From Aulosira sp. ZfuVER01 (GTDB lineage Bacteria > Cyanobacteriota > Cyanobacteriia > Cyanobacteriales > Nostocaceae): a DNA stretch of 64,000 nt. The translations under genes and the position numbers were made by a program. Below the pieces are notes generated by a model. The model was not told the origin of the DNA and made no database searches. It saw nothing but the letters and a program-made list of their open reading frames with translations. The stretch spans positions 1 to 64,000 of the forward strand of contig JAVRCV020000049.1 in the NCBI GenBank assembly GCA_034530615.2. Reading direction: 5' to 3'. Of the stretch, positions 47,959 through 53,831 are shown in pieces; positions within the stretch are counted from its first letter, which is position 1; every line of letters starts with the position of its first letter.

Positions 47959-48172
47959 GCCTTAGCTAAGGGGTACTGTGAGCTTTTCTGAAAATCTTTA
48001 AATTCCAGTGTTACTTTAGCAGGATTTCTGGGAACTATATAGCAATCTTATTTGATTTGTGAACTTACTCGTGGAGGAAGGCAATAGGCAATAGATATTT
48101 TTGCTCTCACCTTGCTTCACAGCCATTTTAATTGTTTCATATACACTTTCGACCAATCCCCAAGGGATATTT

Positions 48173-49636
48173 ATGGATAACCTAGACAAGCTTCTACATG
48201 AACTGACAAAACTTGTTGAGAGTCTGAGGCTGACTGTTGGTGATTCTCATACAATTAAGCAAGAAATCATCCGGCTAAATTTTGTTCAGGAACAACTCCG
48301 CAATCTCCAAGGTGCGATCGCTCAAGAAATAGCTGTTGCAAAAATTAATAATCCAGCAGTTAGTGTACTTTCTTTGGGTACAGAAAGCACTATATTTCCT
48401 TCTCACAGCCGTTTAGTAGATCCATTGCTGACAACTGGAGAAAGATTTATCGCTCACAAATTTGGTAATGAACCAACCAAAGTATCTTTAAATGAATTAG
48501 AATCTCAAATTTCCCGTTGGCTGGAATGGGGTGAACTGCTTCAGACAATAGCTGAAGATATTGTAAGCAATTCTCAATTTATTAATCAACTGAATTCTAA
48601 TATCAACTATCCTAGTTTACCAAGTAAGTTACAAGAGCTTGAAGGAAAACTCAAGATTGACTTAGTTTATAATAAAGCGAAAGTTTTACAGCAGCAAATT
48701 CAGCAAATAGGCAAATACCAAGAGGAATTGTTGCAAGTACAGGAAAAGTCTAGCAAAGTATTTGATAGGATTAAAAATACCCAAAATATTCTATTAATAT
48801 TACTGAATTTATCAGCTTTTTGTGGCAGTTCCGGCTTGGAATTAGAATGGTTTGATGATGAATATGGATTCATAATATCTAGTGGTGACAAATGTCAAGC
48901 CTTGGCAGATATTATCTATGATTGCGAATTATTTCAAGAAGAAATTGATGCCTTAGTTGGCGATACTAACAATTTGTTAGAACAGGCAGAAATAGCTATG
49001 AGCAATCTTCCTCAGAGTAAAAATCTGGAACAAATAACAAAATTATTATCACAAAATATAGTACATTCGGCTTTATTTATTAGCTCAAGTTTATTAGTAT
49101 TAGGTTTTGGTACTTGCATAGTTAAAGATAAAATTGTCACTATGCAGCAAACTCAAAATATCAAACAAGAAAAAATTGCCCTAGCTAACTTGAAATCTGC
49201 TAAAAGTCTGGGTATGGAAGCTGCTGTTATCGTTCAAAAAACACCATTGCCACTAAAAGATTGGCAGCAAGCCGAGAGCAAATGGCAAAAAGCAGTAAGC
49301 TTGCTAGAGGCTATTCCTAAAGATACATCTATTTCTCCACAAACCAATAAACAACTAGTTAAGTATCGTGCCTACCATACTGCTATTAGTCAAAGAGTTG
49401 CTTTGGAAAAGAAAGCAGTATCAAACTTAGAAGCTGCCGAAAAGTTAGCATTAGAGGCTGAGTTTATTATTAAAAATGCGCCTGAAAAATCGGCAATTTT
49501 ACAGCAAGCCAAAGATAAATTACAAGAAGCAATTAATTTATTAGAACCTATTTCTGAAAGTACTTTCGTCTCTAAACAAGTGCAAGAAAAACTTGCGAGT
49601 TATAAAAATAAATATGAGGCGATTAAGACAAAATAA
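48173..49636 (+). CDS. Membrane-anchored coiled-coil protein with C-terminal TPR-like helical repeats
   Basis: Single TM helix; duplicated A.KL..EA..WQQA..KWQ.A..LL..I pattern. Confidence 0.7.
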   Translation: MDNLDKLLHELTKLVESLRLTVGDSHTIKQEIIRLNFVQEQLRNLQGAIAQEIAVAKINNPAVSVLSLGTESTIFPSHSRLVDPLLTTGERFIAHKFGNEPTKVSLNELESQISRWLEWGELLQTIAEDIVSNSQFINQLNSNINYPSLPSKLQELEGKLKIDLVYNKAKVLQQQIQQIGKYQEELLQVQEKSSKVFDRIKNTQNILLILLNLSAFCGSSGLELEWFDDEYGFIISSGDKCQALADIIYDCELFQEEIDALVGDTNNLLEQAEIAMSNLPQSKNLEQITKLLSQNIVHSALFISSSLLVLGFGTCIVKDKIVTMQQTQNIKQEKIALANLKSAKSLGMEAAVIVQKTPLPLKDWQQAESKWQKAVSLLEAIPKDTSISPQTNKQLVKYRAYHTAISQRVALEKKAVSNLEAAEKLALEAEFIIKNAPEKSAILQQAKDKLQEAINLLEPISESTFVSKQVQEKLASYKNKYEAIKTK

Positions 49637-49769
49637 AAAATTGCTCGGGGAGATAAATAATTTCTCTTGATTAGGCCTCTTGCATAAGTCGAGGTTTTTG
49701 ATATTGGATCGCAGATAAACACCGATAAATAAATATCAGTGTTTATCTGTGGTTTTTTATTCTTAAAAT

Positions 49770-50045
49770 ATACTTTATATTCTCGTTTGTTGCGATCTAA
49801 GTCAGCTTGTGCAGATGCGATCGCTTGCTGCATTAAATTCGACTCAGCCGCAATTTGAGTTTGTAGTGCATTCAGTTGAGCAGCGATTTGTCTAAGTTGT
49901 AACTTATTCTGCTGGATATTATCTGCAATTTGTTTTTTTTGGTTCATCTCACCAAAATCTTTTTAACAGCACCTTCTCCGGCTGACTGCACTAACCGTAT
50001 ATCTCCGTCAGGATGGATTGTAGCGGGTGCTTTCACAGTGACATC
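49770..50045 (-). pseudogene. hlyD: Fragment of HlyD-family membrane fusion protein
   Basis: DVTVKAPATIHPDGDIRLVQSAGEGAVK, then after a break QIADNIQQNKLQLRQIAAQLNALQTQIAAESNLMQQAIASAQADLDRNKREY; lacks the TM anchor and the C-terminal half. Confidence 0.75.
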
Positions 50046-50063
50046 ACTTAACAAATGGCTCAC

Positions 50064-50101
50064 AAAAAAACCTGGAGAGGTAATTTAAAGCACTCTCCAG
50101 G
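50064..50101 (-). terminator. Intrinsic terminator downstream of the peptide genes
   Basis: Minus strand CCTGGAGAG-loop-CTCTCCAGG followed by T7. Confidence 0.75.
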
Positions 50102-50177
50102 CTGTCATTGTGAATATTAAGCTACATTACACAGAGTTACCGTAATTTAAACCCTGTAGTTCTAGATTTTGCCTTTA

Positions 50178-50306
50178 TCAGTCCAACGCGGGCATCCCAT
50201 AACCACCAGAAACGTTAGACATTTCCTTTTCATCCAGGCGTACAACTGGTAAAGTTCCTGAGTTAGGATTTTTGGTGTCTTTTTTAGCTTGTTTTTTGAA
50301 CAACAT
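50178..50306 (-). CDS. Double-glycine leader peptide precursor 2 (42 aa; predicted core YGMPALD)
   Basis: Manual translation MLFKKQAKKDTKNPNSGTLPVVRLDEKEMSNVSGG-YGMPALD*; AAGGA RBS; paralogue alongside. Confidence 0.85.
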   Translation of the reverse strand: MLFKKQAKKDTKNPNSGTLPVVRLDEKEMSNVSGGYGMPALD

Positions 50307-50420
50307 AAGTCATCCTTGGGTTTTTTGTGAGTGATTTTAAGCTTTTAATACTGTCAATTAAGACTTATATCCGACAAGAGTTTACAAGCTAACACTAGAG
50401 GTCAAAAATTTCCTTTTCAT

Positions 50421-50543
50421 TCAAAGGTAAGCAGGAGGTCCACCACAAACGTTAGACATTTCCTTTTCATTCAAGCGCACAATTGGTAAAGATCCTAAGT
50501 TATGATTTTTGGTATCCTTTTTAGCTTGTTTTTTGAACAACAT
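50421..50543 (-). CDS. Double-glycine leader peptide precursor 1 (40 aa; predicted core PPAYL)
   Basis: Manual translation MLFKKQAKKDTKNHNLGSLPIVRLNEKEMSNVCGG-PPAYL*; GAGGA RBS. Confidence 0.8.
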   Translation of the reverse strand: MLFKKQAKKDTKNHNLGSLPIVRLNEKEMSNVCGGPPAYL

Positions 50544-50815
50544 AAGTAATCCTCGGATTCTGTTTTGCTAATTTTGAACTTTTAATGTTGTCAATGAAGG
50601 CTTGTAGCCTAATTTACAATTTGAATTTAATTCAGCAGTGTTTGCTATAAACAACACTGCGTTACTTAACTTCATAACTCAAAAAATATTTAAGCGTCAC
50701 TACCTTGAAGAAAACTTTATTCCCAGATTATAATTTAAGTATTTATACGTAATTACTAGTTAATATATACATAGTTATGATTTAGCAGATGTATCCTTCC
50801 AGCTAATTCTGCAAA

Positions 50816-52981
50816 ATGGTCAGATTTGCTAAATATCCATGTGTTTTGCAACTTGCCGAATCCGACTGTGGAGCAGCATCCTTAGCCACTGTTGCAAAAT
50901 TCTACGGTCGTACCCTAACGATGAGTTACATCCGGGAAGTTGTAGGGACTGGGCAACAGGGAACTACTTTATTAGGGCTGAGGAGAGGAGCCGAGGCACT
51001 GGGTTTCAACGCCCAAGGTGTGAAAGCTACACCAGAAATTCTTGAGCAAATCGATATTATGCCTCTACCTGCGATTATTCACTGGTTGGGCTATCACTGG
51101 GTGGTTCTATATGGCAAACGAGGCAACAAGTATGTCATTGCCGACCCAGATCCAGCTATTGGTGTGCGTTATTTATCTCGTGAAGAACTAACCAAAGGCT
51201 GGCAAAACTACATCATGCTGTTACTAGAGGTAGATCAAGTAAGGTTTGAACAACAACAAGACGAGCAAGTTCATGGTTTAGGACACTTTTTGCGCCGTAT
51301 TTTACCTTATAGGCTAATTCTGGCTGAAGCACTGTTGCTTAACTTTGTTCTCGGTCTAATTGCCCTGACTTCTCCCTTCTTCATTCAAATCTTGACTGAT
51401 GATGTGCTAGTTAGGCAAGATACTCGGCTACTCAATGCTGTAGTAATTGCTGTTGCGGTGATGAGCCTTATCAGTAGCAGTCTCAGACTGGTGCAGTCTA
51501 ACTTAATAGCACATTTTGCTCAACGACTGGAGTTAGGTTTAGTTTTGGAATTTGTGCGCCAAATCTTGACACTGCCCCTGACTTATTATGAAACCCATCG
51601 TAGTGGAGAAATTATCAGTCGGCTGTATGATATTCAACGCATTAGAAATGTGATTTCCCAGCTATTTGTTAGTTTACCCAGTGAATTTTTTATTGCTGTC
51701 GCTTCTTTGGGATTACTACTATTTTATAGTTGGAAGTTAATGTTAGCTGTTACCTTCATTATTATTTTAATGATGATATCAACTATTGCAATTTTCCCAC
51801 ATTTGCGGCAAAAAACTAAACATATATTAGCTCAAGAAGGTGAAAAACAAGCAATTTTAGTTGAAACCTTTAAAGGGGCAATTACTCTCAAAACGACCAC
51901 AGCAGCGCCACAACTTTGGGAGGAACTTCAAATTCGCTCTAGCAGTGTAGCAAACTTAACATTTCGTGCTATCCAATTAGCAATTACAAACCAAACCTTC
52001 TCTGATACTACTTCGGTTCTTGGTAGCGTCGGCATACTTTGGTTTGGTAGCCAATTAGTGTTTGCTAAAGAACTTAGTATTGGTCAATTAGTAGCTTCCT
52101 ATAGTTTGACTCAAAATGTGATTCGCTTAATGACTGATTTAGTAGCGATTATTAATCAAATTATTTGGATACGAACAGCTGCTGAACGTCTGAATGAAGT
52201 GATTGATGCTAATCCTGAAGTCCAAAAAGAAGATTATCAAAAACCCTTTGTCAAGATAACTGCTGATGCTGATATAGTTTGCTCAAAAATTAATTTTAAC
52301 TATCCCGGTCAACTTGACTTATTAGAAGACTTTTCCCTGACTATTCCAGGTGGTCGTGTAGTTGCTTTAATTGGTGAATCTGGCTGTGGCAAAAGTACGC
52401 TTTCTAAACTCATAGCCGGACTTTATAACTTGGAATCTGGTAATATCCGTTTTGGTATTTATAACCGCCAAGACCTCTCTCTTGATTGTCTGCGCCAGCA
52501 AGTGATTTTAATTCCCCAAGAACCTCACTTTTGGAGTCGTTCAATTATTGCTAACTTTCGCTTGGGTGCGCCCCACGTGACTTTTGAAGAAATTGTCACA
52601 GCTTGTCAGCTAACAAAAGCAGATGAATTTATTAGTAAACTACCAGACAAATATCAAACTGTTTTGGGAGAATTTGGTGCAAGTATTTCTGGAGGACAGA
52701 GACAAAGATTGGCAATAGCAAGAGCAATTGTTACCGATCCATCAATCCTAATTTTAGATGAATCAACTGCTAATCTCGATCCTGTAACTGAGACTTATGT
52801 TTTGGATAAGCTGTTATTTTATCGCCAAAGCAAGACCACAATTCTAATCAGTCACCGTCCCAGAGTCATCAATCGCGCTGATTGGATTGTGCTATTAGAA
52901 CAGGGTAAAGTAAAAATGCAAGGTACTCCAGAACAGTTGCGCTCAAAATCAGGCGCTCATTTGGATTTTTTAACTCCTTAG
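50816..52981 (+). CDS. Peptidase C39-containing ABC transporter (PCAT, SunT/HlyB family)
   Basis: QLAESDCGAA (Cys), HWVVL (His), ADP (Asp); TMD; GESGCGKST, ISGGQ, ILDE. Confidence 0.95.
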   Translation: MVRFAKYPCVLQLAESDCGAASLATVAKFYGRTLTMSYIREVVGTGQQGTTLLGLRRGAEALGFNAQGVKATPEILEQIDIMPLPAIIHWLGYHWVVLYGKRGNKYVIADPDPAIGVRYLSREELTKGWQNYIMLLLEVDQVRFEQQQDEQVHGLGHFLRRILPYRLILAEALLLNFVLGLIALTSPFFIQILTDDVLVRQDTRLLNAVVIAVAVMSLISSSLRLVQSNLIAHFAQRLELGLVLEFVRQILTLPLTYYETHRSGEIISRLYDIQRIRNVISQLFVSLPSEFFIAVASLGLLLFYSWKLMLAVTFIIILMMISTIAIFPHLRQKTKHILAQEGEKQAILVETFKGAITLKTTTAAPQLWEELQIRSSSVANLTFRAIQLAITNQTFSDTTSVLGSVGILWFGSQLVFAKELSIGQLVASYSLTQNVIRLMTDLVAIINQIIWIRTAAERLNEVIDANPEVQKEDYQKPFVKITADADIVCSKINFNYPGQLDLLEDFSLTIPGGRVVALIGESGCGKSTLSKLIAGLYNLESGNIRFGIYNRQDLSLDCLRQQVILIPQEPHFWSRSIIANFRLGAPHVTFEEIVTACQLTKADEFISKLPDKYQTVLGEFGASISGGQRQRLAIARAIVTDPSILILDESTANLDPVTETYVLDKLLFYRQSKTTILISHRPRVINRADWIVLLEQGKVKMQGTPEQLRSKSGAHLDFLTP

Positions 52982-53042
52982 CTGTAGGAGGCACCTTGAA
53001 TTGGAAGAAGCAATAACTAATGGTCATTGATGCTTGACAAAG

Positions 53043-53831
53043 CTAATTGTTAAAACTCACAATCCCAGACCACTGAACTTTTTTCTGCTGCGATCGGCGA
53101 TAAGAAAAGAAATGCTCTGGAGTTTGGTAAGTACAATAAGGAGCGATCGCAACTTGTTCGCCGCTAATTCCTAGGCTTTCTATCTGTAAAGCATTTACCC
53201 GTCGCACATCCACTCGGACTTTACCTGGGTCAGGGTCGGTAATTAAAGGAGAATTGGGTAGTTCATGTAAAGCATCGACAATCTTTTGTTCGTCTTCATG
53301 TGGCACAATACTAGAGCCAATTTCCGCAGCCACATCTACTGAGACTTGGTACACTTCCCCAGCGATCGCGGGACCCATCGCAATCCGCAAATCTTCAAGC
53401 TTGCTACCTTGTGCTTTCAAACGGGCGATCGCTTGCGGGACAATTTTCTTAGATGTACCCCGCCAGCCTGCATGAATTGCGGCTACCTGTCCGGTTTTCA
53501 CATCGCCAATCAGCACAGGCGTACAATCAGCGCTAGCAACCCACACTGCTTGCAAAGCCTTTTCACTCACTAAACCATCTGCTGATGCTAAAGCCGAATC
53601 ATCATCCCCGCCTGTGCTTAACTTGCTATCAATTTCTTGTGGGGTGAGAACAGTATTGCCATGAACCTGTTTCAAGCGATAAACTGATGCCTCTGGGTGC
53701 AGCACCTGTGTTAACTCTTGTGGTGAACGTGGCCAAAACGGATGGGTAAAGAAGCCGTGTTGCCAAGGTTCTAGGAGACTACAAGTAAGGTAGGGCATTC
53801 CTTGCCAATTGCGCCAGTGCCAAATGTGCAT
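53043..53831 (-). CDS. pgeF: PgeF/YfiH purine nucleoside phosphorylase-like protein
   Basis: QVHG, ADG, ADCTPV, HAGWRG, FFSYRR. Confidence 0.93.
   Translation of the reverse strand: MHIWHWRNWQGMPYLTCSLLEPWQHGFFTHPFWPRSPQELTQVLHPEASVYRLKQVHGNTVLTPQEIDSKLSTGGDDDSALASADGLVSEKALQAVWVASADCTPVLIGDVKTGQVAAIHAGWRGTSKKIVPQAIARLKAQGSKLEDLRIAMGPAIAGEVYQVSVDVAAEIGSSIVPHEDEQKIVDALHELPNSPLITDPDPGKVRVDVRRVNALQIESLGISGEQVAIAPYCTYQTPEHFFSYRRSQQKKVQWSGIVSFNN

Follow-up and report, generated by a model that had tools for sequence, protein, structure and literature searches.

The window analysed here, a 64,000-nucleotide stretch of the genome of Aulosira sp. ZfuVER01, carries two very small precursor genes, p1 and p2, which diverge from a gene encoding a peptidase-containing ATP-binding cassette transporter (PCAT; Table 1). 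A sequence-only reading of this DNA had described them as two open reading frames (ORFs), each with a ribosome-binding site (RBS), that share near-identical leaders and end in the cores YGMPALD and PPAYL. Both ORFs are indeed present, and an AGGA or GAGG site lies 5′ of each. Their leaders are 83% identical and terminate in L-[DN]-E-K-E-M-S-N-V-[SC]-G-G. The two cores are unrelated to one another, as had been stated, yet each has a relative in the precursor family described below. In a genome-wide search, p1 and p2 were the sole ORFs of the 8.0-Mb genome in which this leader end is followed by a core of 3–10 residues.

Table 1. Features of the precursor and exporter locus (positions within the window)
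Feature	Position	Strand	Remarks
Short dispersed repeat	49670-49765		Left edge of the island, at the end of the hlyD remnant; matches are numerous in G000, G711 and G712
hlyD (membrane fusion protein) pseudogene remnant	49774-50045	-	Two out-of-frame pieces (residues 50-82 and 102-159 of 444), without a start
Intrinsic terminator-like hairpin + U7	50064-50103	-	Between the precursors and the hlyD remnant, 3′ of p1
Precursor p1	50178-50306	-	42 aa; 35-aa double-glycine leader + core YGMPALD; probably derived by frameshift from family core AWFRVGP
Scar of a partial third precursor copy	50408-50424	-	17-nt repeat of leader L-N-E-K-E-M codons across the p2 stop; seen in the sequence
Precursor p2	50421-50543	-	40 aa; core PPAYL (of the family type PSQYL/PSKWL) after a 35-aa double-glycine leader; conserved copy
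Divergent intergenic region	50544-50815		One hairpin at ~50630-50660
Short-type PCAT (C39 + transmembrane domain + nucleotide-binding domain)	50816-52981	+	721 aa; domain matches; clade accompanying this precursor family

The terminator proposed downstream of the precursors was recovered in the form of a hairpin with U7 after it (z −2.4 on folding; 8 of 200 shuffles were equally good), and like hairpins occupy the same place in 5 of 5 relatives folded (z −2.5 to −4.8). A consensus terminator scan with a loop limit of 8 found none, because the loop of this hairpin is long. The 17-nt repeat at the end of p2 matches in position a longer remnant at locus L015. Within the divergent intergenic region no motif is conserved across 11 loci of the family, and a sigma-70 promoter scan remained at chance level (10 found against 9.0 expected). 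Next to p1, p2 and the PCAT there is neither a modifying enzyme nor an immunity gene nor a two-component pair, in agreement with the sequence-only reading. That reading had the precursors and the PCAT right and overlooked the broken hlyD gene that lies beyond the terminator.

The exporter itself is intact. Domain matches (C39, ABC_membrane, ABC_tran) show a C39 peptidase with Gln/Cys/His/Asp fused to a transmembrane and a nucleotide-binding domain, and its motifs are all found: Q12, C18, H94 and D110, Walker A and B, the signature, and the Q-, D- and H-loops. Among solved structures, the C39 domain is nearest to streptococcal ComA; a two-residue DP insertion after the catalytic Asp was considered as a defect and rejected, as ComA carries the same DPDP. 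Cleavage after Gly-Gly followed by export is established for this class of enzymes. The leaders have the corresponding features, a GG/GA/GS end and the hydrophobic residues anticipated at −4, −7 and −12 (V-4 in 95%, M-7 in 100% and L-12 in 98% of 101 leaders, where the extraction pattern itself demanded G-2, M/L-7 and V/I-4). These residues agree with the pockets of LahT (PMC6363468).

A complex of the C39 domain with p1 was predicted with a score of 0.67 (best control 0.02), the runs sharing 92% of contacts and the partner having a pLDDT (predicted local distance difference test) of at least 59. The score mark is reached by 116 of 157 solved pairs and 2 of 215 mismatched pairs, and as a like complex has already been solved (6MPZ), a pass indicates likeness, not binding. 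In the predicted complex, p1 residues 18–24, 26 and 29–38 are in contact with the C39 domain, Cys18 and His94 among the residues contacted. Purifying selection acts on the C39-binding half of the leader: pN/pS is 0.20 for residues 19–35 compared with 0.58 for residues 2–18 (93 genes; pairs not independent). The suspected tie between such precursors and one group of exporters is borne out by the PCAT tree. The PCATs of the family loci (16 rows) form one clade (99/98), separate from 4 paralogues in this genome that are 59–62% identical, and 14 of the 15 clade loci from the C39-domain scan carry such precursors (L025 weakly); the remaining locus begins at a contig edge.

Relatives were sought with p1, with alignments and with the PCAT peptidase domain; the result sets partly overlap in contigs and are therefore not summed. 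They occur in 3 of 400 other genomes of the host's order and, at E < 1e-10, in 11 of 389 genomes of its family, the host genome counted. Altogether, 28 of these 389 genomes matched. Six of the 17 with E > 1e-10 were looked at: five (G905, G887, G961, G793, G839) hold long cores or fragments and no cassette, and in G1014 both PCAT and HlyD are broken. Two other weak matches, G438 and G321, were rejected as family members. When the PCAT peptidase domain served as query, 16 loci came up, with titles including Nostoc, Stigonema, Microcoleus, Aliterella, Microcystis and Chroococcidiopsidaceae (best locus L014, Nostoc sp. 106C, 98% identical), and a metagenome scan added 10 loci with arrays that resemble the Microcoleus loci L017 and L018.

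A profile of the family found 104 matches in 27 of 28 non-redundant loci. The leader, which has a basic N-half and the motif LP[IV]V-x-L-x-[ED]-K-[DE]-M-S-x-V-x-GG, is exactly 35 aa long in 85 of 89 ATG-started genes, and 78 of the 89 have an RBS-like site. A locus holds 1–8 precursor copies, and gene order differs among loci. After removal of P0066 (1342 aa) and P0083 (no motif), we counted 121 distinct cores from loci and database proteins, 109 of which have at most 10 aa, mostly 5–8 aa. The possibility raised earlier, that homologues all have long cores and that the copies in the window are truncated, was not borne out: short cores are the rule of the family and thus not truncations.

Several relatives merit description in their own right. 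The loci L017, L018 and L030–L039 hold arrays of 4–8 precursors with the types GQ[IL]NAI, RIG[ML]PGG[DE], x-Y-x-x-WAG, TQR[VI]W[SG]G and [TS]SHHG, whose recurrence suggests a maintained panel of peptides. Some cores of the family end in W-x-G and may thereby resemble amidated animal neuropeptides, a likeness that the cores of the window do not share. At L074 (G879:C12:44278-44601) an orphan precursor pair, GKIGSL and GKIGTL, lies beside an IS1 and PCAT scraps, while an intact cassette is present elsewhere in that genome; judging from this arrangement, the orphans could be exported in trans. Distant leaders with long cores beginning NVVWGGNG and no PCAT nearby were seen at L082:8393-8614 and L083:8248-8445. 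Among 88 neighbouring proteins, no modifying-enzyme, receptor or immunity family recurs across unrelated loci, with the sole exception of L025. There (L025:1537-8695) a leader with the core KKVYVCG is followed by a heme-oxygenase-like/TenA enzyme, DJ-1, an aldo-keto reductase, ABM, PCAT and HlyD. This is a candidate modified-peptide cluster, and similar cores occur in P0052, P0061, P0087 and P0088. The cassette is common to scattered soil and terrestrial cyanobacteria and appears to be built to cut and secrete plain peptides of 5–7 aa.

Selection acts beyond the leader. Between L019 and G382 the core GRRWS differs at 7 of 15 bases while its amino acids stay the same; between L019 and G1015, GRSWS shows 5 differences in 15 bases, all synonymous; and GQLNAI is common to G857 and two metagenome loci whose leaders are only 42% identical. 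As judged from these comparisons, the core sequence is under selection, since core types are kept across genera; this speaks against the leader as the only product. PPAYL recurs in G712, P0006, P0085 and P0086, next to the related types PSQYL and PSKWL. Compared with its G712 counterpart, p2 has 3 synonymous and 1 non-synonymous change in the leader and an unchanged core. PPAYL is the conserved core and would be the maintained product in this strain.

The same does not hold for YGMPALD, which the sequence-only reading had placed on a par with PPAYL and which is known from this sequence alone. Its nearest relatives carry the core AWFRVGP, P0084 joins a p1-type leader to AWFRVGP, and the position of p1 corresponds to an AWFRVGP-like remnant in L015. 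Moreover, with a two-base shift in frame, the codons of YGMPALD can be aligned to those of AWFRVGP (p 0.001 for G614 and 0.015 for G879, but 0.096 as best of all cores). It is thus likely that YGMPALD arose by a recent frameshift of AWFRVGP, and it is possibly an unselected variant.

The other damaged part of the cassette is hlyD. In 91 codons the remnants show 25.7 non-synonymous differences from an intact copy, compared with 9 between two intact copies, which argues for long-running decay. In the same-genus genome G712 hlyD is also lost, and another piece is left there (residues 1–50, then a stop). Across 27 loci, HlyD is full in 16, cut by a contig end in 3, interrupted by a stop in 1, reduced to remnants in 2 (the window and G712) and missing from 5; the last are the orphan pair beside PCAT scraps in G879, one contig edge and three weak matches.

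Such losses raise the question of whether the cassette in this strain is a decaying relic with no useful product, the family being functional elsewhere. In favour of this, hlyD is broken both here and in G712, and three members of the lineage have lost the AWFRVGP-type gene or carry an altered one. However, the decay of hlyD is old, whereas the PCAT has only 3 private non-synonymous changes against 10 synonymous ones in 721 codons, and PPAYL has stayed the same in G712. The omega of the PCAT is 0.167 against G712 and 0.169 between G879 and G614, relatives with intact hlyD. By this measure the PCAT remains under purifying selection although its own hlyD is dead, and as omega is unchanged after the loss, the exporter is still selected without its own HlyD. 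We therefore regard a relic as improbable.

A substitute may be at hand. In the HlyD tree, the nearest relatives of the lost protein are two intact genes on contig C52 of the same genome, 74% and 64% identical, and G712 holds an intact HlyD 73% identical to the lost one. TolC-type and oligopeptide-binding proteins are also encoded in this genome. It is plausible that the PCAT uses the 74%-identical HlyD borrowed from the other locus; release of the peptide into the periplasm would be the alternative, and periplasmic export has been proposed for HetC (PMC10986499). The best source of a borrowed HlyD is this C52 locus (G000:C52:234610-243061), which, besides a PCAT and both intact HlyD genes, holds a double-glycine precursor rich in Lys and Ser (236699-236878) and two enzyme-like ORFs.

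The cassette sits on an island of ~3.4 kb (~49640-53055). In the same-genus genome G716 the two genes flanking the island are directly adjacent, and other genus members in which both flanks lie together carry different inserts at this site. Of the 14 other genomes of the genus only G712 has the cassette, at a different site. The combination of PCAT, precursors and HlyD is best read as a mobile three-part cassette, gained at variable sites of the chromosome. No family match was found in viral contigs or in plasmids (the plasmid search used one query). The gap itself, between a 511-aa gene and pgeF, holds inserts of 0 to ~7 kb across genus members and is thus an insertion hotspot. The 511-aa protein (48101-49636) has no Pfam or NCBIfam match and is conserved in the genus beside pgeF.

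This distribution bears on the developmental role with which the short cores had been linked. A PatS/HetC-like morphogen for heterocysts or hormogonia would fit the core size, which matches the RGSGR pentapeptide (PMC7761841), and periplasmic export, proposed for HetC (PMC10986499), would be open to a PCAT that lacks its own HlyD. On the other hand, the cassette is found in 2 of 15 genus genomes and 11 of 389 family genomes (E < 1e-10), and also in Microcoleus, Aliterella and Chroococcidiopsidaceae loci. These three groups are not known to form heterocysts. In addition, RG(S/T)GR occurs in 0 of 111 short cores, and most relatives keep HlyD. A morphogen is therefore very unlikely. Of the earlier proposal, the peptide signal stands as the likeliest reading, and the developmental comparison is given up in view of the patchy mobile cassette, the taxa lacking heterocysts, the missing RG(S/T)GR and the short-type PCAT.

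A different possibility is that the precursors are peptides made by the ribosome and modified post-translationally (RiPPs), the modification taking place in trans before export, for instance by Trp/Tyr prenylation into ComX-like pheromones. Trp occurs in 55 of 109 short cores and falls within the last three residues in 49 of the 55 (shuffle mean 27.7, maximum 42; kin not independent), and in ComX it is the 3rd or 4th residue from the end (PMC5331326). This genome encodes a LynF/TruF-type prenyltransferase, the subgroup with VYVCG cores has the heme-oxygenase-like enzyme of L025 in cis, and the leader exceeds the length needed by C39. Nevertheless, of 16 genomes with the cassette only 4 have a prenyltransferase that scores above the cut-off, and none was found in G712 (100% complete), which encodes the same PPAYL. 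This genome has no match to the L025 enzyme, no enzymes travel with the cassette, and PPAYL and YGMPALD contain no Cys, Ser, Thr or Trp. Taken together, modification in trans is unlikely. The prenyltransferase of this genome (LynF/TruF family; G000:C22:83352-84236) is accompanied, over the 24 kb inspected, by neither an obvious cyanobactin protease nor an obvious precursor. Cyclic cores, which the sequence-only reading had allowed for, were rejected on chemistry: in the established mechanism of the protease, the C39 acyl-enzyme holds the leader and not the core.

The peptides might also be directed against other organisms. Inhibitory or deterrent peptides, acting via oligopeptide permeases, by jamming peptide signalling or on grazers, could be kept as a diversifying library. 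The cassette is gained at variable sites, up to 8 different cores share one locus, no receptor is linked, and two homologues are named 'bacteriocin' by NCBI. Yet there is no immunity gene, the 'bacteriocin' label most likely comes from the generic leader model TIGR01847, and the cores, many of them neutral, are too short to form pores. An inhibitory role is, in our judgement, also unlikely.

The explanation we favour, with about an even chance of being right, is that the cassette secretes unmodified linear oligopeptides of ~5–8 residues as signals for receptors encoded elsewhere, in kin or neighbours. We infer a signal role for linear, unmodified products from peptide size, sequence-specific conservation and the absence of immunity genes and enzymes. 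First, the precursors would be transcribed away from the PCAT, with transcription mostly ending at the terminator before hlyD, as the layout suggests. Next, leader residues 18–35 would dock on the C39 domain, and Cys18, His94 and Asp110 would cleave after Gly-Gly, a step established for the enzyme class and supported here by conservation and the predicted complex. The core would normally leave via HlyD and a TolC-type channel; in this strain, where its own hlyD is lost, it would pass through the borrowed 74%-identical HlyD or be released into the periplasm. Finally, its sequence would let it act on a receptor or target that the cassette does not encode, either in kin of the producer or in microbes nearby.

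Several observations weigh against this explanation. No receptor is linked to the cassette, whereas the genes of RRNPP peptides and receptors adjoin (PMC10075063), and this genome gave no match to RNPP_C, the one model used. A genome may hold as many as 8 different cores, a better fit to a chemical library than to one self-signal. The cassette of this lineage shows decay: besides the dead hlyD, the AWFRVGP-type gene has a frameshift in the window, is read through in P0084 and is missing from G712. L025 is a related locus with enzymes in cis, and 12 of the 121 cores, from weaker matches, have 14–48 aa. Also, near-identical metagenome arrays make up 10 of the 27 loci, and counts therefore overstate independence. 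As no receptor is linked and a locus can hold up to 8 cores, the targets are expected outside the cassette, in kin or neighbours. Put as a tentative proposal that may well prove wrong, the cassettes would amount to a PCAT-exported, enzyme-free code of linear peptides of 4–10 residues and conserved types, carried by a mobile cassette, with libraries of up to 8 in the Microcoleus-like arrays, receptors outside the cassette and, in this lineage, an exporter without its own HlyD. The receptors may be the producers' own or those of neighbours, e.g., peptide-sensing Gram-positive bacteria.

It is worth noting that Microcoleus is a builder of soil crusts, and its arrays make a role of such peptides in the behaviour of crust communities directly testable. 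The family supplies more than 100 exact candidate peptides that are cheap to synthesise and detectable by mass, from precursors that fall under usual gene-calling limits, and peptide cell-to-cell signals of such size are hardly known in cyanobacteria. The window offers a natural test of a PCAT with a borrowed HlyD or none, as well as a probable example of how a frameshift gives rise to a new core. That PCATs of Gram-negative bacteria do more than export toxins was considered probable but lacking evidence in 2024, when the substrate of HetC was also described as unidentified (PMC10986499). Elsewhere in this genome, at G000:C16:43518-44786 (L122), two double-glycine-type leaders are fused to a Peptidase_S74 (endosialidase chaperone) domain, an odd PCAT cargo; these proteins lie among a YcaO cyclodehydratase, a TPS/haemagglutinin-like protein and a PCAT without an adjoining HlyD.

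Compared with known systems, the precursors are neither classical bacteriocins nor members of the leader families excluded earlier. Nif11, NHLP, cyanobactin and microviridin leader models match 0 of 46 members (NCBIfam and Pfam, libraries expected to contain these models; E up to 0.1, no positive control run for them). The CTB bacteriocin model NF038167 also matches 0 of 46, with two precursors at another PCAT locus of the genome matching as a positive control. Only generic leader models match, and weakly: TIGR01847 does so in 34 of 46 members, and p1 reaches 15.6 bits against a cut-off of 15.7. In the ESM Atlas, only unnamed clusters lie above 0.9.

ComC/ComAB pheromones and class II bacteriocins of Gram-positive bacteria share the ComA-like C39 domain, the −4/−7/−12 pattern and the weak TIGR01847 match. 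They differ in a linked two-component receptor or immunity gene, neither of which is in this cassette, and have about 17 aa or more as exported. The core of tens of residues and the linked immunity gene that define class II bacteriocins or microcins were not found. In RRNPP peptides (Phr, PapR, SHP, AimP) and ComX, as here, a small mature peptide, of 5–10 aa, is derived from a short precursor, and ComX has Trp near its C-terminus, as do half of the family cores. However, RRNPP propeptides are exported by Sec or PptAB and have an adjoining tetratricopeptide repeat (TPR) receptor (PMC10075063), while here export is by a PCAT and no receptor is linked. TPR neighbours occur at only 3 scanned loci and have 647–1288 aa (two of them TPR-CHAT), compared with 250–500 aa for a TPR receptor. 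ComX requires prenylation by ComQ (PMC5331326), and no enzyme is linked here. No prenyltransferase lies in cis; in a search that did not extend to ComQ-like genes, 4 of 16 genomes have one of the F-family; and the cores of the window lack Trp. PatS/PatX and HetC resemble the system in peptide size and, for this strain only, in a PCAT without an adjacent membrane fusion protein. PatS/PatX have the RG(S/T)GR core and are present across heterocyst formers, whereas the cassette is patchy and has no such core; HetC has no double-glycine substrate nearby (PMC10986499).

The closest parallels come from cyanobacteria. Like the present cassette, the group III 'bacteriocin' clusters of Wang 2011 combine a short PCAT, HlyD and tandem double-glycine precursors with variable cores, but those precursors have 29–129 aa, whereas this family has a distinct 35-aa leader and cores of 4–10 aa (PMC3140520). 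Its Table S3 lists no sequences, and family members may be among the entries. By the joint presence of short PCAT, HlyD and precursors the family belongs to this group, with full HlyD at 16 of 27 loci and a remnant in this strain. EbfG1-4/PteB of Synechococcus elongatus are likewise an unmodified double-glycine PCAT cargo and its exporter, with a non-antibiotic role in biofilm; mature EbfG has 6–7 kDa, compared with 0.5–0.9 kDa for the cores here (PMC4997328). In literature outside subscription journals, figures and bioRxiv supplements, full-text searches found no leader or core strings of the family, and topic searches, at the level of listings and abstract openings, showed no description of it. 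The double-glycine precursor family is real and appears to be undescribed. Its export system is of a known kind, and what makes it unusual is the very short cargo that needs no enzymes. To our knowledge, its cores would be shorter than any other PCAT cargo.

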